The notes: generated by a model not told the origin, from the sequence alone. 53,032 nt of DNA from a virus (IMGVR_UViG_2541047822_000003); one strand, 5' to 3'; shown: positions 10,096-17,876, counted from the stretch's first letter. Made by a program: numbers and translations.

Positions 10096-10518
10096 GTGGC
10101 AAAAGTTTTTACACAAGAAGAGCGGGAAAAAATTAAAGGGCAGGTTCTTGAACTCGTACGCCAGAGTGGACGCGAGACGTTACGACAACTGGAAGCTAAA
10201 ACTGGGGCAACAAGATATCTGATGAGCGTTCTGGCCAGAGAGCTGGTTGCCAGTGGCGATGTATACAATTCTGGCTACGGGTTATTCCCGTCTGAACAGG
10301 CTCGTAAAGACTGGCAAAATGCCCGCAAAAAATTATCGAGGGCAAAGCTGAAGAAACCGGTTGTGGTTGATCCGGACCTTATCTGGTCATTACCTGACGG
10401 AGAAATACGTCGCTACGACAGTCGCCTAAACATAATCTGTCGCGAGTGCCGGAAGAGCGAAGTTATGCAGCGCATATTGTCGTTTTATCAGGGGGATGTT
10501 CGGTATTTATTGAAGTGA
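10096..10518 (+). CDS. Hypothetical protein of the replication module
   Basis: 140-aa ORF with GTG start preceded by AGGAGG; downstream of the O-like gene; no recognisable motif. Confidence 0.5.
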   Translation: MAKVFTQEEREKIKGQVLELVRQSGRETLRQLEAKTGATRYLMSVLARELVASGDVYNSGYGLFPSEQARKDWQNARKKLSRAKLKKPVVVDPDLIWSLPDGEIRRYDSRLNIICRECRKSEVMQRILSFYQGDVRYLLK

Positions 10519-10574
10519 CGAGATTAAAGTGCATTAGTTCAGATGCAAATTGACATTTTGTGGCACAGGGTAGA

Positions 10575-10602
10575 GCTAGCGTGGTTGTCCGCTTTGTGCC
10601 AA
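10575..10602 (+). repeat. 28-bp palindrome-like junction element, copy A (ttgtccgcttt-GTGCCA-agagcagacgc)
   Basis: 11-6-11 architecture with GTGCCA core, shared with copies at 14258-14285 and 15424-15451; lies 250 bp upstream of the BCCT gene. Confidence 0.55.
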
Positions 10603-10852
10603 GAGCAGACGCTGGTAATTCGTGCCTAATATACTTCACTTAACTTATATCCCAGCTTTGATACAGATCATACAAATTAAATGCCCCAGTAATTGGCAGG
10701 CTGAGTAACTTAAAACTCCTTAGAATATAGGATGATTTGTATCGGCACTCATTCCACCATGCATTCCGATTAACCCCGCATAGCCAGTTGAACTTTGCTA
10801 CTCTGTGAGAGGTAGTACCTTCTATCCAGTGCGGATTTAATTAATGGAATAA

Positions 10853-12856
10853 ATGATTATGAGTGAAAATGATACAACCCCAAAGAAGTCTACAAGCCAG
10901 ATTAACAAAGCGGTATTCTTTACATCTGCTTTGCTAATTTTCCTTCTTGTCGCCTTTGCCGCCGTATTCCCGGATGTCGCCGACAAAAATTTTAAACTAC
11001 TTCAGCAACAAATCTTCACGAATGCCAGCTGGTTCTACATACTTGCTGTGGCCCTGATTTTACTGAGCGTCACGTTCCTTGGACTCTCACGTTACGGTGA
11101 TATAAAGCTGGGCCCAGACCATGCGCAGCCTGATTTCAGCTACCACTCCTGGTTCGCGATGCTTTTTTCGGCAGGGATGGGGATCGGCCTGATGTTCTTT
11201 GGCGTTGCCGAACCTGTGATGCATTATCTTTCGCCACCTGTCGGCACTCCAGAGACCGTTGCGGCAGCGAAGGAAGCCATGCGCCTGACGTTCTTCCACT
11301 GGGGTCTGCACGCATGGGCAATTTATGCCATCGTGGCGCTGATTCTGGCCTTTTTCAGTTACCGTCACGGTCTGCCTTTAACGCTGCGTTCTGCGCTCTA
11401 TCCCATTATCGGCGATCGCATTTACGGGCCTATAGGCCACGCGGTTGATATCTTCGCCGTGATAGGCACTGTCTTTGGCGTTGCAACATCGCTGGGTTAC
11501 GGTGTATTGCAGGTGAATGCCGGTTTGAACCATCTTTTCGGCGTGCCCATCAATGAAACGGTACAGGTCATTTTGATCGTGGTCATCACGGGGTTAGCGA
11601 CGATTTCGGTGGTGTCCGGCCTGGACAAGGGAATACGCATCCTGTCTGAGCTTAATCTGGGCCTGGCGGTGTTGCTCCTGGCGCTGGTCTTGTGCCTGGG
11701 TCCCACTGTGCTTCTGCTGAAGTCATTTGTGGAAAATACGGGTGGTTATCTGTCGGAACTGGTGAGTAAAACGTTCAACCTTTACGCGTATGAACCCAAG
11801 TCGAGCAACTGGCTGGGGGGCTGGACATTATTATACTGGGGATGGTGGCTTTCATGGTCGCCGTTTGTAGGTATGTTCATTGCACGCGTTTCCCGCGGCA
11901 GGACAATTCGTGAGTTCGTGACTGGCGTGTTGTTTGTTCCCGCCGGCTTTACGCTCATGTGGATGACGGTGTTTGGAAACAGCGCCATCTATCTCATCAT
12001 GAACCAGGGCGCCACTGACCTCGCCAATACCGTTCAGCAGGATGTTGCGCTTGCCCTGTTTAATTTCCTGGAGCATTTCCCGTTCTCTTCCGTGCTGTCA
12101 TTCATTGCAATGGCGATGGTCATCGTCTTCTTTGTAACGTCTGCTGATTCGGGGGCAATGGTTGTGGATACTCTGGCATCAGGTGGGGTGGCAAACACGC
12201 CCGTCTGGCAGCGAATTTTCTGGGCATCGCTCATGGGCGTTGTTGCTATTGCCCTGCTGATCGCAGGGGGGCTGAGTGCGTTGCAAACCGTAACGATAGC
12301 GAGTGCATTGCCCTTCTCAGTTATCTTATTAATATCCATATACGGACTGTTAAAAGCCCTGCGTCGGGATTTGACCAAGCGTGAAAGCCTTAGCATGGCG
12401 ACTATTGCTCCTACGGCTGCACGTAACCCAATTCCCTGGCAGAGAAGGTTACGCAATATCGCGTATTTGCCGAAGCGCTCTCTTGTGAAACGTTTTATGG
12501 ACGACATTATCCAACCCGCCATGACGCTGGTTCAGGAGGAACTTAACAAGCAGGGAACGATAAGCCACATCAGTGACGCCGCCGAGGATCGTATTCGCCT
12601 TGAAGTCGATTTGGGCAACGAGCTGAATTATATATATGAAGTGAGGCTTCGCGGGTATAACTCACCGACCTTCGCGCTCGCTGCGCTGGATAATGATGAG
12701 CAGCAGAGTGAACAACATCGATATTATCGCGCTGAAGTCTATCTCAAAGAGGGCGGCCAAAATTATGATGTAATGGGCTGGAATCAGGAACAGCTGATTA
12801 ATGACATACTGGACCAGTACGAAAAACACCTGCACTTCCTGCATCTGGTTCGTTAA
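10853..12856 (+). CDS. BCCT-family transporter, BetT-like (choline/betaine-type osmoprotectant uptake)
   Basis: 667-aa polytopic membrane protein with the BCCT signature GWTLLYWGWWLSWSPFVGMFIARVSRGRTIREF and a BetT-like C-terminus (DILDQYEKHLHFLHL). Alternative start ATG 10859. Confidence 0.8.
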   Translation: MIMSENDTTPKKSTSQINKAVFFTSALLIFLLVAFAAVFPDVADKNFKLLQQQIFTNASWFYILAVALILLSVTFLGLSRYGDIKLGPDHAQPDFSYHSWFAMLFSAGMGIGLMFFGVAEPVMHYLSPPVGTPETVAAAKEAMRLTFFHWGLHAWAIYAIVALILAFFSYRHGLPLTLRSALYPIIGDRIYGPIGHAVDIFAVIGTVFGVATSLGYGVLQVNAGLNHLFGVPINETVQVILIVVITGLATISVVSGLDKGIRILSELNLGLAVLLLALVLCLGPTVLLLKSFVENTGGYLSELVSKTFNLYAYEPKSSNWLGGWTLLYWGWWLSWSPFVGMFIARVSRGRTIREFVTGVLFVPAGFTLMWMTVFGNSAIYLIMNQGATDLANTVQQDVALALFNFLEHFPFSSVLSFIAMAMVIVFFVTSADSGAMVVDTLASGGVANTPVWQRIFWASLMGVVAIALLIAGGLSALQTVTIASALPFSVILLISIYGLLKALRRDLTKRESLSMATIAPTAARNPIPWQRRLRNIAYLPKRSLVKRFMDDIIQPAMTLVQEELNKQGTISHISDAAEDRIRLEVDLGNELNYIYEVRLRGYNSPTFALAALDNDEQQSEQHRYYRAEVYLKEGGQNYDVMGWNQEQLINDILDQYEKHLHFLHLVR

Positions 12857-12863
12857 CAGCAAC

Positions 12864-12890
12864 ATGCCGCCACAGAGGCGGCATTTATTT
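12864..12890 (+). terminator. Rho-independent terminator-like hairpin after the BCCT gene
   Basis: ATGCCGCC-acaga-GGCGGCAT followed by TTATTT, 8 nt after the BCCT stop. Confidence 0.6.
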
Positions 12891-12919
12891 ATCCCGGCTG
12901 CAATATGAGGGAATGCAGA

Positions 12920-14197
12920 ATGATTTCACGCTGGAAATGGATGCTGAAGCAGACATTTAAAAAACTATGGTTCAGGGCAACGTTATTCGCAATTGTCGCA
13001 ATAATAACGGCCCTTTTATCAATTCTTTTTAAATCAATGATACCTGAGTCGGTTTCCGTGAAGGTTGGTGCGGAAGCAGTCGATAACATTCTGAACATAC
13101 TGGCATCGAGTATGCTGGCAGTGACCACATTTTCGCTGAGCATCATGGTCACAGCCTACGGTTCAGCCACTACTAATGTGACTCCCAGAGCTACTCGTTT
13201 AGTTGTTGAAGACGTCACCACACAAAATGTACTGGCCACCTTCATCGGTTCTTTTCTCTTCAGTCTGGTAGGGATTATTGCCCTCAATATGGGAGCTTAT
13301 GGAGAAAGGGGGAGAGTCATTTTATTCATTGTAACACTGGTTGTCATTGCCTTAATCCTCATCACATTGCTTCGCTGGATACAGCATTTGACCTCTCTGG
13401 GGAGGGTTGGTGAGACAACGGCAAAAGTAGAACAGGCGGCCATCGAAACATTTATTGCGAGAGCAAGAAATCCCTGTCTCGGCGGATATCCATGGCTTGA
13501 GAACAATGAACAGCCGAAAGGAACGGTTGCAGTTTATCCGAAAAAGATTGGCTATGTTGAATATGTTGATATGGTGAAACTCAGCAAGCTGCTGACCAAT
13601 GATCCCCGTCATGTATACCTCGTGGCGCAGCCGGGCAGTTTCATACATCCGTCCACGCCAGTTTTGTACCTGAGTCAGGGCCAGGAGTCATCAATCAGCA
13701 CCGATTTACTTGAGACGATTATTGTCTCGGATGTACGTTCATTTGCTCAGGACCCCCGATTTTGTCTTAGCGTCATGGCCGAAATAGCCTGCCGAGCCCT
13801 TTCCCCCGCAGTGAACGATCCTGGAACCGCCATTGATGTCATTGGCAGAGGTGTACGTATACTTTCCGCTTACGCGCAGAATAAATCTGATGAAATAGAA
13901 GTGAAATATCCTTCTGTACATGTTGCACCACTTCAGAATAACGATCTACTTGAAGACTTTTTCTCACCTGTTGCGCGCGATGGTGCCAGTATGAGGGAAA
14001 TTCAGATAAGGGTACTTAAAGGACTGTCGATGCTGAGTAAGGGTTGGCCTGGAATTTTTGCTGAAGCCGCACAAACCCTAGCATTTGAAACATTAGAGCA
14101 TGCTACTCGTGCTGACCATATAGATTCTGATAGATATCTAATAAAATCAATTTATTATAATTTATTTAGTGGCGAAGATTCTAATAAAAAACCATAG
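12920..14197 (+). CDS. Membrane protein, DUF2254-like (4 N-terminal TM helices plus soluble C-terminal domain)
   Basis: ORF 12905-14197; start preferred at ATG 12920 (GAGGGA 7 nt upstream). Four hydrophobic helices then a soluble domain; family call is from recall, not a search. Confidence 0.65.
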   Translation: MISRWKWMLKQTFKKLWFRATLFAIVAIITALLSILFKSMIPESVSVKVGAEAVDNILNILASSMLAVTTFSLSIMVTAYGSATTNVTPRATRLVVEDVTTQNVLATFIGSFLFSLVGIIALNMGAYGERGRVILFIVTLVVIALILITLLRWIQHLTSLGRVGETTAKVEQAAIETFIARARNPCLGGYPWLENNEQPKGTVAVYPKKIGYVEYVDMVKLSKLLTNDPRHVYLVAQPGSFIHPSTPVLYLSQGQESSISTDLLETIIVSDVRSFAQDPRFCLSVMAEIACRALSPAVNDPGTAIDVIGRGVRILSAYAQNKSDEIEVKYPSVHVAPLQNNDLLEDFFSPVARDGASMREIQIRVLKGLSMLSKGWPGIFAEAAQTLAFETLEHATRADHIDSDRYLIKSIYYNLFSGEDSNKKP

Positions 14198-14257
14198 TTG
14201 CGGAGCAAGCGATACGGTTGTTGGCAAGTCAAGGGCAAAGCATTCGCGTGAGAGTGG

Positions 14258-14285
14258 GCGTCTGCTTTGTGCCATGAGCGGACAT
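14258..14285 (+). repeat. 28-bp palindrome-like junction element, copy B (gcgtctgcttt-GTGCCA-tgagcggacat)
   Basis: Same 11-6-11/GTGCCA architecture; 61 bp downstream of the DUF2254 stop. Confidence 0.55.
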
Positions 14286-14489
14286 GGGCCTCCTCAGCAG
14301 TTCTGCAGACAGCTCTCGTGTAGTAAGAAACTGGAAAGCAGGGTTTCGATATCTGGTCATGAGTCTAAGATAGTCAGGACTGCGGCAGAATCGGATGTTA
14401 CTAAGCTTGGATCAACAGTATCTTCGATGTAAGAAAATTACCTTGAAAATATTTGGGGCCAAGGTTACGCTAATAAAAAATTGTCAAGT

Positions 14490-14522
14490 AAAACGCAATT
14501 ATTATATTAATAGTTGCGTTTT
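14490..14522. terminator. AT-rich hairpin between convergent genes (AAAACGCAA-15 nt-TTGCGTTTT)
   Basis: 9-bp inverted repeat read directly between the DUF2254 gene and the 3' end of the 225-aa gene; weak stem with long loop. Confidence 0.3.
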
Positions 14523-14556
14523 AATAATATCTTGCAGATGTAATAATATTGGGTGT

Positions 14557-15234
14557 TTATGTCAAACCTGCTCTACGTCCTCTTGACATAATTTCCTTCT
14601 GATAAGGAATTGTTCCATCTTTAATAAGCCTTGAGAGCTCGTTCAATCCACCATCAATTCTCTGAGAGACGTTAAAGAGAATATTTCTATTTGCTAGCAC
14701 AGGGATTAAGTATTCATACTCCTCATAGTCATCACAAAAATCCATAGCACACATACCCCACTCAGCATTTATAAATGGATCTATAACCTCATAAATAAAT
14801 TGAGATGTCAGCATTGAGACATCTTTATTAGGAGCAGCAAAATGTTGAATAGAGTTCCTCAATTTCCCAAAATCATTGTATAACTTAAGATTATTAATCT
14901 TCTTTCCAGTTGCAGCCCAAACCTTCTCAGGCAACTCTGAATAAGTAATTGTTTGCCCTTTTTCTAATAAGCTTTCAAAATCAAGAAGCCCTGTAGTTTT
15001 ATTTACGCAATCAGCTGTTGATTTTGGTAATGACTCAAAAATTAAAAGAGGGTGTTCCTGAGCAAGACGAGCTTTGAGAAAAATCTCACAAGCATGGGCT
15101 GCCTGTAAGACGCCCAATTGTGACCACATAGAGTTACTCATATCATAAAAATGAGCAAGGTAGTTGGCATGAGCAAGTGAACCTGCTCCCAAAACAATCA
15201 TATGCTCATGAACTTTTTTTAAATTAACATCCAT
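14557..15234 (-). CDS. Hypothetical protein with a HEPN-like Rx4H motif (putative RNase / abortive-infection-type protein)
   Basis: 225-aa ORF in AT-rich DNA; GAGGAG RBS 7 nt upstream; predicted alpha-helical with motif GKLRNSIQHF (R-N-x3-H) typical of HEPN catalytic sites. Motif-level inference only. Confidence 0.6.
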   Translation of the reverse strand: MDVNLKKVHEHMIVLGAGSLAHANYLAHFYDMSNSMWSQLGVLQAAHACEIFLKARLAQEHPLLIFESLPKSTADCVNKTTGLLDFESLLEKGQTITYSELPEKVWAATGKKINNLKLYNDFGKLRNSIQHFAAPNKDVSMLTSQFIYEVIDPFINAEWGMCAMDFCDDYEEYEYLIPVLANRNILFNVSQRIDGGLNELSRLIKDGTIPYQKEIMSRGRRAGLT

Positions 15235-15360
15235 TTAACACTCCTCAAAAAACATTTGTTTACGTTATCAAAAAAAGATGGGTATTGCCCACATTTTAAG
15301 ACGATTATATTTAAATTTGTTATGTGGTGTTACTTAAGTTTCGGATGAATAATATGTCTG

Positions 15361-15395
15361 CTCTTCGCTCTTCGCTCTTCGCTCTTCGCTCTTCG
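15361..15395 (+). repeat. Tandem heptanucleotide repeat (CTCTTCG)x5 plus a degenerate sixth unit
   Basis: ctcttcgctcttcgctcttcgctcttcgctcttcgctcaccg read directly; flanked by GTCTGCT (15356-15362) and GCGGAC (15402-15407), resembling arms of the junction palindrome. Confidence 0.85.
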
Positions 15396-15423
15396 CTCAC
15401 CGCGGACCTTCAGCTTCGTTAAC

Positions 15424-15451
15424 ATGTCCGCTCCGTGCCAGGAGCGGACAT
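15424..15451 (+). repeat. Perfect 28-bp palindrome, copy H (ATGTCCGCTCC-GTGCCA-GGAGCGGACAT)
   Basis: 11-bp perfect inverted arms around a 6-bp GTGCCA core; no flanking T-tract, so not a canonical intrinsic terminator; lies between the two minus-strand cargo genes. Confidence 0.8.
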
Positions 15452-15582
15452 TAATGAGTTAAGTTCTGAAAGTAGCATTAAATACGCACATGCTTTTCCT
15501 AATAACTCGATTGTCATTTATATCGTTAAACAGTTCCGGAGACAACTCTGACTTACAGGAATATCGCTAAGCCTCTGCCTCC

Positions 15583-16464
15583 CTAAGCAATATCCTGATT
15601 GCTGAGTTGAGGCATTAATCGCTCAAATAATTCATCACTTTCATAGGGGATGTTATTAATATGCCGAGAATAAATTAACCCTCTAGGACAAAGCTTGGAC
15701 AAAGAACTTTCACATAAAACACCTATACATTTTTTGTTTTCCCCTGCCATAAAGTCTTCTAAATTCCTCAAGATAAAATTTCGTGACAACTCACGATGTT
15801 CGCTTATTGCCATTCTCGCATCTTCAGAATTAATGAGAGACAGGTTAGGAAGCAAATCAGTAACATTAACGGCCACCATGCCTAGATTTTTAAGTGATGA
15901 GCTATCCTTTATCCTGCGCACGATCTGCTGGTTTGCAACTTTTATGTTTTTAGATAGTTTTTTTAACGACTTAACTCGTTTGCATTCTACAAAAAGAATT
16001 TTGCCGTCAGAGAGTTTCACTTCGATATCACAAATGCTTTTAAGAGAAATTTTATATCCTGCACGTAGAAATCTTGCAGCCATTGACAACTCAAACAGAA
16101 AGTCCCTTGCAGGATCGTTCTCAGAAGTAGCACGAAATTCTTGACCAGTGATAACCTTCTTTATTTGATCGAGATACTCCTTGATATCAAGCCATTTAAG
16201 ATCATTGTAAACTCTTATAATTTCATTAGCTTCCACGTGAGAATTCATCATCTCCTTCATAAAGGCAACTAAATTTTCATCGGGTGTATCTTTGAAAATT
16301 TTTTCACCATTTGATAGTGCTTTCAATTTTTGAAGGTTTTTGTGGTATACCCCATATCTTGTTACTGCAAACCTAAAACCCAAACTATCGAACCAAGTAC
16401 AAACCTCTTCAAATTTAGTTAACAAACCTGAAAACTCATGCTCGTATATTTCCTTGCCTTCCAT
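15583..16464 (-). CDS. Hypothetical protein with a PD-(D/E)xK-like nuclease core motif
   Basis: ORF runs to 16542 (TTG); start preferred at ATG 16464 (MEGKEIYEHEF, AAAGAGAAG upstream). Motif pattern E(FLFELSMAARFL)...D(ICDIEVKL)-SDG-KILFVECK fits a beta-hairpin D...ExK nuclease core. AT-rich. Inference. Confidence 0.6.
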   Translation of the reverse strand: MEGKEIYEHEFSGLLTKFEEVCTWFDSLGFRFAVTRYGVYHKNLQKLKALSNGEKIFKDTPDENLVAFMKEMMNSHVEANEIIRVYNDLKWLDIKEYLDQIKKVITGQEFRATSENDPARDFLFELSMAARFLRAGYKISLKSICDIEVKLSDGKILFVECKRVKSLKKLSKNIKVANQQIVRRIKDSSSLKNLGMVAVNVTDLLPNLSLINSEDARMAISEHRELSRNFILRNLEDFMAGENKKCIGVLCESSLSKLCPRGLIYSRHINNIPYESDELFERLMPQLSNQDIA

Positions 16465-16704
16465 ATTCTTCTCTTTAAATAAACCCAGATTCGTATTAGT
16501 GCTTGTCAAATTCATAGGGGCTGTGCCCCTTAAAATCATCAAGTGGGAGCTTGACCTGTAAAGATTGTGAAGCTATTCGCATCTCGATTAAATGCTCTAT
16601 ATAGTTGACCAGACCAATTTATACCAAACGGCAGAATAAAAGAAGGAATCCTCTCTGCACTTAACTAGTCATTCCTTGACTACTGTGATTAAGATCACTT
16701 CCAA

Positions 16705-16730
16705 AGTCCGCTTATCGCTCAAAGCGGACT
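16705..16730 (+). repeat. Palindrome related to the junction element (AGTCCGCTT-atcgctca-AAGCGGACT)
   Basis: 9-bp perfect arms sharing GTCCGCT/AGCGGAC with copies A, B and H but with a different 8-bp centre; upstream of the PD-(D/E)xK-like gene. Confidence 0.5.
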
Positions 16731-16908
16731 AGAAGGTTAGCTTGCGTCGGACTTGGCGTATTTAAAGAAGTGCTGGTGGTGACTGGTTGTTGTGTTCCAT
16801 TTCTACAGAACAAAATCACAGAAACTATACCCAATAGTTATATTGAATCAATGATGAGACAGCCTCATATTTATCAGAACTGGTGTACGTCCAATACAGG
16901 AGGTTGTC

Positions 16909-16998
16909 GTGCTGGTTCTCAAATGTGCGCTAGCTATTGCGGCTGTAATGGCAATTTATTGTCTTGCTGTTGTTCTTATGGAGCGGCTTTCTGATTGA
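16909..16998 (+). CDS. Candidate small hydrophobic peptide (29 aa, type I toxin-like)
   Basis: GTG start 5 nt after a perfect AGGAGG (16898-16903); product MLVLKCALAIAAVMAIYCLAVVLMERLSD is one predicted TM helix with a charged tail. Speculative; overlaps a 74-aa Cys-rich frame that I rejected. Confidence 0.3.
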   Translation: MLVLKCALAIAAVMAIYCLAVVLMERLSD

Positions 16999-17145
16999 TT
17001 ACATACTGGCTAGAAAAAAGGTGTTACCTTGGTTTATCTTTGTCCGGCAAGGTGCGCTCATTAATCTTAAGTAAATTTATTGCTCAAGTATTCAGATTAC
17101 TTCTTATGGTTGAAGTCTCCTGTCAATGTAGAACCAATATATTTA

Positions 17146-17212: not shown

Positions 17213-17551
17213 CTATTTTTTGGTGCTATAGACTTTTTCGCCCGAGAAGTCTGGAGCGACCCAAAAGTTAATATTAAACTGAGCATCATCGCTTAGTTCA
17301 ACACGGTGCCAGTATTGTGGTGGGCTTGTTGCAAAAGCGCCAGCATTAATGACTACTTTTATCTCCGGTTCAGTAGCATTCTCATCAGTAAAACCATAAT
17401 ATGTTACAGTGCCTTCCATTACGCACAACTGCCCAAAAACACCTGCTGCTGTATTATGATGTGTTAATAACGCTGAAGGTACGTTCTCTTTTGTGAAGAA
17501 CGGAGTTGAGCGTTTGATTACCCAATCTTTAGGAATTCTCTTGTGTGTCAT
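17213..17551 (-). CDS. Small conserved protein, possibly cupin/DUF1971-like (function unknown)
   Basis: ORF 17213-17575; start at ATG 17551 (MTHKRIPKDW) with strong GGAGG RBS; family assignment is tentative. Confidence 0.6.
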   Translation of the reverse strand: MTHKRIPKDWVIKRSTPFFTKENVPSALLTHHNTAAGVFGQLCVMEGTVTYYGFTDENATEPEIKVVINAGAFATSPPQYWHRVELSDDAQFNINFWVAPDFSGEKVYSTKK

Positions 17552-17876
17552 AACCACCTCCTCAAAAACATGCATTATAAATGCGTGTTTTTGAGGGTTA
17601 TGTCAAGCTGTTATGAAACACATAATTGATATGTTGATTAGAGGAGAAGATATAATAAATATGGTTGTTTTTCGTATAACTATTTGTTTTACTTTTAGTT
17701 TATGCATTCTGTGTGTTAGGAATAAGTTATTAAAGTTTAATCAAAAAATCTCGATGTAGTCCACATAGATTATTGTTACTGAACCTTACTGTGTGTATTA
17801 GTTGTGTTCTGAAATTTCAGCTTAATTATTTATGATGTATTTTTTAACGATAAATATTTTCCCAGGATACCTTTAC

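Follow-up and report, generated by a model that had tools for sequence, protein, structure and literature searches.

Palindromic sites with two core types at cassette boundaries of an Escherichia coli Rac prophage: members of the P2 Z/fun site family and probable recombination sites

The stretch of DNA analysed here (the window; 53,032 nucleotides from the virus IMGVR_UViG_2541047822_000003) is an Escherichia coli Rac prophage and is 100% identical to strain Z0117EC0040. The genes intR, xisR, recET, kilR and sieB lie on one side of the region of interest, and trkG and the terminase genes on the other. Between the DUF977 gene (10096-10518), which is the last of the replication block, and the DUF1971, DUF1367, DUF1364 and DUF1133 genes, accessory genes are separated by short palindromic sites, which are the subject of this study. 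An earlier note, made from the sequence alone, had described a recurrent 28-bp palindrome with a GTGCCA core at the junctions of these accessory units and had proposed that the copies are recombination sites at the boundaries of a cassette array rather than ordinary terminators.

Sites and cassettes in the Rac array

We found five sites, which fall into two core classes: GTGCCA (G; sites A, B and H) and TCGCTC (T; sites R and M). The order is A (G), the BCCT and DUF2254 genes, B (G), a gene for a protein of 225 amino acids (aa), M (T), a 14-nt linker, H (G), a 310-aa gene and R (T). The features are as follows (ICE, integrative and conjugative element).

10529..10584, + strand: leader upstream of the first site, with a -35-like TTGACA (10550-10555) and TGGCAC (10562-10567), an inverted copy of the G core
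10585..10612, + strand: site A, G-type, TTGTCCGCTTT GTGCCA AGAGCAGACGC, core 10596-10601, exact pattern match; comparison with L003, an ICE-like locus, assigns the left arm to the backbone and the right arm to cassette 1
10602..14268, + strand: cassette 1, annotated as a BCCT transporter (10859-12856) and a DUF2254 membrane protein (12920-14197)
14258..14285, + strand: site B, G-type, GCGTCTGCTTT GTGCCA TGAGCGGACAT, core 14269-14274; left arm from cassette 1, right arm from cassette 2
14275..15364, - strand: cassette 2, 225-aa hypothetical protein (14557-15234), no Pfam match
15354..15409, + strand: site M, T-type, ATGTCTGCTCT (TCGCTCT x4 + TCGCTC) ACCGCGGACCT, with a heptamer-expanded core
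15410..15423, + strand: 14-nt linker of the T-linker-G junction, TCAGCTTCGTTAAC, resembling linkers at other loci
15424..15451, + strand: site H, G-type, ATGTCCGCTCC GTGCCA GGAGCGGACAT, core 15435-15440, perfect palindrome
15441..16714, - strand: cassette 3, 310-aa hypothetical protein (15583-16515), no Pfam or PADLOC match
16704..16731, + strand: site R, terminal T-type, AAGTCCGCTTA TCGCTC AAAGCGGACTA, core 16715-16720; from other loci and strain S21, the left arm belongs to cassette 3, and the core and right arm to the backbone
16732..17010, + strand: conserved right backbone flank of the hotspot; the DUF1971 gene is next (17213-17551, - strand)

The pattern GTCYGCTNNGTGCCANNAGCRGAC matched the window exactly at 10587-10610 (A), 14260-14283 (B) and 15426-15449 (H), against 0.00 matches in shuffled sequence, and differed from R (16706-16729) by two mismatches. 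With the core left free, R joined A, B and H to give four exact matches, against 0.33 expected by chance. No further copy was found elsewhere in the window, where the sole relaxed match (39460) has four mismatches. All five sites have GTCYGCT and AGCRGAC arms in the same orientation. Their layout, GTCYGCTNN, 6 bp and NNAGCRGAC, is that of inverted half-sites around a spacer, and both cores are asymmetric. H is a perfect 11-6-11 palindrome, as the earlier note had stated; across the family, the conserved stretch is only 7 bp per arm. The three GTGCCA copies of that note are real and its coordinates for B, H and R are right, but A had been placed at 10575-10602, about 10 bp away from its position. 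The pairwise identity of the arms, given there as 8 to 10 of 11, was 6 to 10 of 11 when measured. R, described as a related palindrome, and M, described as a copy interrupted by a microsatellite, are present, but they are not degenerate GTGCCA sites and form the second class. The two non-interchangeable core types, as well as the fixed T-42 bp-G junction described below, had been missed.

Site A combines a GTCCGC left arm with a GCAGAC right arm, and B has the reverse combination. This mismatch between arms arises because the sites are chimeric, with one arm from the backbone and the other from a cassette. In M (core 15365-15398), the heptamer microsatellite adds 28 bp to the distance between the arms, compared with other T sites. 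The expansion may have inactivated the site, or may have made it variable in length by slippage; in both cases, cassettes 2 and 3 would be locked to each other.

No other locus that we retrieved contained the interior of cassette 2 or of cassette 3. Their genes had been described as carrying nuclease motifs, for which we obtained no confirmation: Pfam gave nothing, and PADLOC gave weak matches to PDC-S64, DUF3644 and HEPN-like models for the 225-aa protein only. The string ATGTTTTT(T)GAGGAG, which includes the Shine-Dalgarno sequence, has two copies, at 15241-15255 (- strand) before the 225-aa gene and at 17558-17571 (- strand) before the backbone DUF1971 gene; the chance expectation is about 0.1 for one of them, and significance is not established. 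The string had been noticed before as common to two minus-strand cargo genes, and this holds for the 225-aa and DUF1971 genes but not for the second hypothetical gene.

Exchange of cassettes and crossover at the site core

The sister Rac prophage of strain S21 is 99.9% identical to the window up to 14285 and again from 16706, and carries LysR, gamma-glutamylcyclotransferase and major facilitator superfamily genes in between. This version, which replaces both hypothetical genes, occurs in hundreds of E. coli genomes. At B, GCGTCTGCTTT GTGCCA is common to the two prophages and the sequences then diverge (TGAGCGGACATGGG in the window versus GAAGCGGACATACG and other genes in S21). At R, only the left arm differs and TCGCTC AAAGCGGACTAGAAGG is common. 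The switch points thus lie directly after the core of B and directly before the core of R. A comparison of this kind between Rac prophages had been called for in the earlier note; whole units do differ, and the breakpoints fall inside B and R. Furthermore, at 25 or more other loci the cassettes on the left are unrelated, and homology to the window sets in at 16697-16715 and continues from there. The right flank (16732-17010) is common to Rac-like prophages with many different cargos; between the same Rac-like flanks we found genes of SIR2, AbiH, DUF4209, SMEK and AAA-ATPase types, the validated defence gene PD-T7-1 and others. At least one Rac-like variant, with IteAS, is without sites.

The BCCT and DUF2254 unit is also found, 99.8% identical over 10587-14283 of the window, in an ICE-like island of strain JMF1, beside trbJ and trbL. 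The hybrid sites there (ICE-like locus L003) have kept the cores and the cassette-side arms, and the outer arms and flanks are changed. Searches with the site pattern, as had been proposed, found sites bounding differing cassettes in viral contigs; Rac-like prophages and the ICE-like island have such sites too. In E. coli the element does not appear to be a common chromosomal repeat unrelated to cassette boundaries. The repetitive extragenic palindromic (REP) sequences and bacterial interspersed mosaic elements (BIME) are scattered over the chromosome in tens to hundreds of copies; E. coli and its relatives have a handful of the present sites per genome, all in mobile-element hotspots. The S21 swap, the recurrence in an ICE-like island, the breakpoints at the cores and the lack of a terminator score support the proposal that the copies are recombination sites bounding cassettes and not ordinary terminators.

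Two further observations concern the cargo and the hotspot itself. Most E. coli chromosomes carry a BCCT and DUF2254 paralogue of 94% identity, for which homology to the window (10750-14274) stops at the last base of the B core; in the O104:H4 chromosome (L004 8510-8533) a decayed G-like palindrome, GTATGCTTT GTGTCA AAAGCAAAC, follows this paralogue. The paralogue is either an old integrated cassette or the source of the captured one. The Rac prophages of several E. coli genomes (H2, H3 and H14-H18), identical in other respects, carry the insertion sequences (IS) IS1A, IS903 and IS3 within the hotspot; transposition therefore adds variability that is independent of the sites.

We scanned IMG/VR with the G pattern, which gave at least 120 viral contigs, and one genome per species, which gave at least 120 loci; sites were detected with fixed-spacing patterns. 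The same IMG/VR loci contained at least 32 T sites, which had not been selected for. Among about 165 sites there were 120 distinct 28-mers, with left and right arms combined almost freely. For mapping of the breakpoints, 148 distinct sites from the IMG/VR and E. coli loci were compared with 120-bp flanks, all pairs in register. The 224 pairs that share the left flank only (a count of pairs, not of independent events) are about 100% identical as far as position 14, where the core ends, and reach the background level at the variable positions 15, 16 and 20, the first of the right arm (50%, 42% and 58%, versus a background of 45%, 38% and 63%). The 68 pairs sharing the right flank only gave the mirror-image profile. 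At arm positions 7 and 8, identity in the left-shared pairs was 88-100%, and there were almost no crossovers within the arms. The identity profiles break between positions 8 and 15, and the hybrid arms in A, B and L003 join the left of one partner to the right of the other. As read from these profiles, the crossover is confined to the 6-bp core, give or take one base.

The sites follow a regular grammar in dozens of loci: a G site, a cassette of 0.4-5 kb and a T site, and then 42 bp, start to start, to the next G site, all co-oriented. The distance of 70 between the starts of M and H equals the canonical 42 plus 28, the length of the four extra heptamers. Linkers resembling 15410-15423 (consensus about TCAGCTCAGTTACC) were found at 23 distinct T-G junctions in other loci, and window positions 15387-15453 have blastn similarity to junctions in L031, L044, L048, L087 and others. 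The 36-bp piece from the T core to the next G core recurs between unrelated cassettes, so that junction modules reassort at both cores, each of which is therefore a breakpoint. Neither hybrid core, GTGCTC or TCGCCA, had a match in the 2.9 million IMG/VR viral contigs, of which at least 120 have G sites. Thus, the G and T site types stay separate. Exchange by a serine recombinase at the central GC common to both cores was considered and dropped, since no hybrid core was matched in IMG/VR.

Upstream of the first G site, Rac-like, P2-like and ICE-like backbones have a leader of 55-70 bp in common (GYATTAGYTCA ... TGGCACAGRGTARAGC ...). In the window (10529-10584) and in phage P2 (AF063097, about 15275-15334), it has a -35-like TTGACA/TTACAT and TGGCACAG, the inverted G core with adjoining bases. 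From its sequence, the leader might serve as a promoter directed into the array or as an accessory binding region. No conserved neighbouring gene was found: no protein cluster was present in more than 32 of 125 viral loci, and the top clusters were P2 tail genes, that is, backbone.

Relatives of the sites and a candidate recombinase

In P2 (AF063097), the Z/fun cassette is flanked by a G site (15335-15358), GTCCACTCT GTGCCA AAAGCGGAC, after gene G, and by a T site (17432-17455), TTCCGCTTC TCGCTC AAAGGAAAC, before pF/FI. On sequence grounds, the sites of the window are of the same family as those of P2 Z/fun. According to a review (PMC8987985), Nilsson et al. (Mol Biol Evol, 2004) described the inverted repeats at P2 Z/fun as site-specific recombination sites shared with bacterial genomes. 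The kind of site is thus known from P2, and the Rac array is a further member in a different phage family and hotspot. Common to both are the G and T sites and, between them, a variable cassette region rich in defence genes. The two differ in that the backbone of the window is lambdoid (Rac), with the hotspot between the replication and nin/Q genes, and in that the window holds three cassettes in an array, which includes an internal T-linker-G junction and one G..G cassette. Among the viral loci, many are P2-like, and their sites lie between gene G, for tail-fibre assembly, and gene FI, for the sheath; no sites were found at the old/tin hotspot of P2. In the P2-like Yersinia phage P37, the whole module is missing, rather than being reduced to a single hybrid site. 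Nothing lies there between gene G and the pF promoter (L131 776-810), and the terminator, AGGCGGGC-TTAT-TGTCCGCTTTTTC, resembles a pair of a T right arm and a G left arm, which may be a coincidence or a hint at the origin of the sites.

The G/T grammar was found in many Enterobacterales, among them Enterobacter, Pantoea, Serratia, Erwinia, Citrobacter, Rahnella, Cedecea, Kosakonia and Lelliottia in the scan of at least 120 genome loci. The G site is also present in metagenome-assembled genomes of Hyphomicrobiales (Hyphomicrobium, Methyloceanibacter, Microvirga, Bradyrhizobium and Pseudolabrys), in Nitrosospira and other Nitrosomonadales, and in a few other taxa. In the genomes of Hyphomicrobiales (scanned as contigs), many copies were found on many contigs, mostly as arrays and often at contig ends. 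The junctions in Hyphomicrobium are triple, with a GGGTCA site, an ACCCCCR site about 45 bp later and a GTGCCA site 46 bp further, and the cassettes are 0.8-3 kb. These triple junctions (L191, L195, L197 and L211 of Hyphomicrobium; L146-L162 of Hyphomicrobiales OFTM377) have identical arms, ATGTCCGCTTT and AAAGCGGACAT, and the ACCCCCR centre is 7 nt long. A site with a 7-nt centre, GTCCGCTTT RCCCCCA AAAGCGGAC, also occurs about 46 bp upstream of the G site in the viral contigs L064, L066 and L067; this third site type is therefore not confined to Alphaproteobacteria. No recurrent protein common to the enterobacterial and alphaproteobacterial arrays was found, except for cargo-like remote homologues.

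A possible enzyme is encoded in strain E22, where a 200-aa PF00589 protein (WP_023147793.1) lies inside an array of this kind, beside PD-T7-1; the 200-aa recombinase is also represented by WP_001305361.1. In E22 (L127, 4648-5997 and 6315-6917), and also in L012, L049 and L096, PD-T7-1 and the small recombinase gene are together in one unit of a Rac-type array, bounded by a site with a GTGCAA core and by the half-site after the recombinase gene. By inspection of the sequence, the protein has the catalytic residues R, K, H-x-x-R, H and Y. The Xer catalytic domains (XerA, XerC and XerD) match it best, at scores far below the family cut-offs, and it is like FimB/FimE in size only. In about 14 of the 18 viral contigs with enough flank, the gene of a close homologue lies between a co-oriented upstream G and downstream T site. 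The distances from gene to site are variable, and therefore the co-cargo differs. The recombinase gene is in a G..T cassette also in a Proteus island at icd and in a chromosomal island of uropathogenic E. coli.

After the stop codon, there is a short GC hairpin and then a half-site, GTGCCA-NN-AGCGGAC, at 26-30 bp (gamma-type) or 49 bp (alpha-type). This half-site, with at most two mismatches, was found at 18 of 34 distinct loci, homologues in marine ICEs included, versus 0.5% of control windows. Some of the other loci have a variant core in their best match near this offset, for example CGGCCA (3-5 mismatches) and GGGTCG (4 mismatches). Furthermore, alphaproteobacterial homologues that were retrieved by protein identity alone are flanked by sites of the family. 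Judging from these sequence features, the leading candidate for the enzyme, at roughly even chances, would be this Xer-like tyrosine recombinase of about 200 aa, which consists of the catalytic domain only and would act in trans. Several alphaproteobacterial clades (L261-L270 and L256) have a conserved 5' leader, CTGAAGTCTCCCCCAA...AATGGAGAGAGAC(C)ATG, in the 60 bp upstream of the recombinase start, which suggests a conserved regulatory RNA or an element of translational control.

Proposed mechanism, alternatives and significance

We consider it likely that the palindromes are double-stranded site-specific recombination sites and that the Rac region between the replication and nin/Q-type genes is a cassette array. 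A tyrosine recombinase, for which the above protein is the candidate, would bind both half-sites and exchange strands across the 6-bp core. Matching cores would be required, so that G and T (and X and C in other taxa) would be separate recombination channels, and the minimal unit would be G-cassette-T, in which the two sites share arms and apparently recombine with their own kind only. We infer that such enzyme-catalysed recombination would be conservative: a G x G or T x T event within one array would excise a circle with a cassette and a junction, and in the reverse reaction the circle would insert wherever a site of its type is present. If a G x G and a T x T event took place as a pair between two elements, the cargo would be replaced and the backbone left intact, as in engineered recombinase-mediated cassette exchange (RMCE). 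Arrays would grow and shrink by integration and excision of circles or by exchange between co-resident elements.

Several known systems offer comparisons. A possible parallel in logic is offered by the heterospecific lox and FRT sites, which also have the same arms with different asymmetric spacers and recombine only with their own kind, so that a cassette can be exchanged and is not lost. This logic fits the G..T grammar, the lack of hybrid cores and the lack of empty sites. RMCE with lox and FRT is engineered, with 13-8-13 sites and full-length Cre or FLP, and the present family would be a natural counterpart. Like integrons, the arrays are co-oriented, with promoter-poor cassettes of 0.4-5 kb, short conserved sites, hybrid sites formed by exchange and frequent defence cargo, and the site beside the candidate recombinase gene resembles attI. 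In contrast to attC sites, which are folded hairpins with R/L boxes, the sites here are simple double-stranded palindromes with the crossover at their centre; there are two to four non-interchangeable cores, the platform is a phage or ICE hotspot, and the candidate recombinase is about 200 aa, lacks the IntI-specific insertion and would usually act in trans. The attC boxes R'' and R' (RYYYAAC ... GTTRRRY) are absent from the site sequences, and no intI neighbour was found: the window is without a tyrosine recombinase, and the only three PF00589-like open reading frames (ORFs), weak or strong, among the 1,784 ORFs of 120 genome loci were not IntI-like by context. FimB and FimE are also about 200 aa and essentially a catalytic domain, and there is a weak match to NCBIfam NF007371 (E 2e-6). 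The score is far below the family cut-off, and they invert one promoter segment between 9-bp inverted repeats, whereas the sites here are direct and cassettes are exchanged.

Several points weigh against the reading of the palindromes as dedicated recombination sites. The window lacks the candidate recombinase gene, and only 848 (16%) of 5,426 complete E. coli genomes have it. Homologues at 72-76% identity have no canonical site within 4 kb; at the post-stop offset, their best matches to the G half-site have 4-5 mismatches of 13 (GGGTCG + AG + TGCGGAC in L261), which is beyond a limit of three. The recombinase itself could be cargo, as these distant homologues without canonical sites indicate. 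In the same 5,426 genomes, the deletions that A x B and M x R events in the window array would produce were absent, and a query made of the left and right flanks joined found no truly empty Rac-type site; the closest was a 240-bp remnant with a decayed T site in strain A20. Such an empty site may be missing because the last cassette could not be lost through events of the G x G or T x T type. The 7-nt-centre class (ACCCCCR) is awkward for a single recombinase with a fixed spacer. The counts of 224 and 68 pairs are phylogenetically non-independent and overstate the number of events, although the profile is uniform all the same. Finally, the core is the longest invariant stretch, and recombination guided by microhomology would also break there.

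This last point belongs to the main alternative, in which the palindromes are conserved insulator or boundary sequences, shuffled through short homology over the 24-bp sites by RecA or by the RecET of Rac, with no dedicated recombinase. RecE and RecT are encoded next door, the hotspot flanks are more than 99% identical among Rac prophages so that most present-day swaps could use flanking homology, and neither an empty site nor a simple excision product was found. We regard this alternative as improbable, since identities of 6-18 bp are far below efficient substrates of RecET or RecA and crossovers within the arms are almost lacking. It also leaves unexplained the two strict core classes, the uniform orientation, the exact phasing of the junctions at 42 bp (or 91 bp), the conservation of the half-site from Enterobacterales to Hyphomicrobiales, and the half-site at a fixed offset behind the recombinase gene. 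Quite unlikely, in our estimate, is a process on single-stranded DNA, in which folded hairpins would be nicked or recombined in the loop, by His-hydrophobe-His (HUH) or rolling-circle enzymes or in the manner of attC, with cassettes running from loop to loop. Such a process would place breakpoints at the palindrome centre, the would-be loop, as observed, and would go with the different left and right ends of cassettes (like ori and ter) and with arrays that superficially resemble integrons. Single-stranded folding was strong for H and R (z scores of -6.7 and -5.5 relative to shuffled sequences), but A (0.16) and B (-0.54) folded no better than the shuffles. The polymorphism of the arms (C/T on the left, G/A on the right) is independent between them (CG 65, CA 28, TG 18 and TA 4), which leaves 24% of the sites with a C-A mismatch in the 7-bp stem, and the two core-adjacent bases are complementary at chance level only. 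Since there is no covariation of the arms and A and B do not fold, the conserved unit is a 7-bp half-site read on each side. GTTRRRY/RYYYAAC boxes are absent, no IntI or HUH gene was found in the vicinity of the arrays, and a gene for a classical tyrosine recombinase is linked to them instead. The sequence data thus favour double-stranded half-sites, with the logic of lox, FRT, dif or the lambda core, over hairpins, HUH origins or terminators. IS200/IS605-type and IS91-type elements were rejected as well, as the breakpoints are at the palindrome centre and not outside it, and arm pairing is unnecessary.

Phage morons are classically bounded by a promoter and a terminator, and the sites might be terminators, RNA stability hairpins or regulator operators, each moron bringing its own regulatory ends. 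The intergenic location and the stable stems of H and R would suit this. We hold it to be very unlikely: no T tract follows the sites, A, B, M, H and R are absent from the 14 terminator-like calls of a terminator scan, no Rfam family matches them, and A lies upstream of the genes of its cassette. The hybrid arms destroy the pairing of A and B, and regulatory ends would move as intact units, whereas all the sites are chimeric, with the split at the core. Least probable of all is that the sites are dif- or pdif-like targets of the host XerC/XerD or of the Rac integrase IntR. The 11-6-11 architecture does match dif, as the earlier note had pointed out, XerCD is present in every host, and the nearest named relatives of the candidate are Xer proteins. 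There is a further likeness to pdif modules (and to integrative mobile elements exploiting Xer), which are site-bounded accessory modules moved between replicons without a transposase. Identity to dif is at chance level, however, with 5-9 of 28 positions in either orientation: the dif arm consensus (GGTGCGCATAA ... TTATGTTAAAT) is not matched, the inner motifs TTATG and CATAA are absent and the core-adjacent bases are variable. Sites in pdif modules alternate in XerC/XerD orientation, whereas all copies here are direct repeats, and the same sites occur in P2-like phages and ICE-like islands with different integrases. XerCD or the prophage integrase is thus unlikely to be the enzyme, and the small Xer-like recombinase encoded elsewhere is a better candidate.

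A wider proposal, which we make tentatively and put a little below an even chance, is that the sites together with the recombinase of about 200 aa form a widespread, unnamed integron-like system. It would work on double-stranded sites with the mutually exclusive cores GTGCCA, TCGCTC, GGGTCA and ACCCCCR, in effect as natural RMCE. In Enterobacterales, the P2-like and lambdoid prophages and the ICE-like islands would owe the turnover of their defence and accessory cassettes to it, and in Hyphomicrobiales and Nitrosomonadales it would build large chromosomal arrays. Papers that map the hotspots give the mechanism of cargo change as unknown, and Rousset et al. (2022) speculate on cos ends; Vassallo et al. 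(2022) and Egorov et al. (2024) include the Z/fun hotspot in their lists and mention no site. Our full-text literature searches gave no match for the site sequences, and keyword searches gave no relevant integron-like or lambdoid cassette system. In the texts searched, which did not include the 2004 P2 paper, we found no account of the two-core grammar, of the mapped crossover, of the linked small recombinase or of sites in ICE-like islands, Alphaproteobacteria and Betaproteobacteria; their novelty is provisional.

Phage defence hotspots turn over their cargo very quickly, and the sites offer for them a conserved recombination site with a mapped crossover, rules for arrays and a candidate enzyme. 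The G and T sites are also a sequence handle on cassette boundaries, with which prophages, ICEs and environmental genomes can be searched for new defence genes. If the link to the recombinase holds, the sites would belong to a second cassette-capture system beside integrons, mechanistically different from them, and would provide natural orthogonal recombination sites of possible use in genome engineering. In phages, the sites point to a little-studied, integron-like trading of defence and accessory genes.

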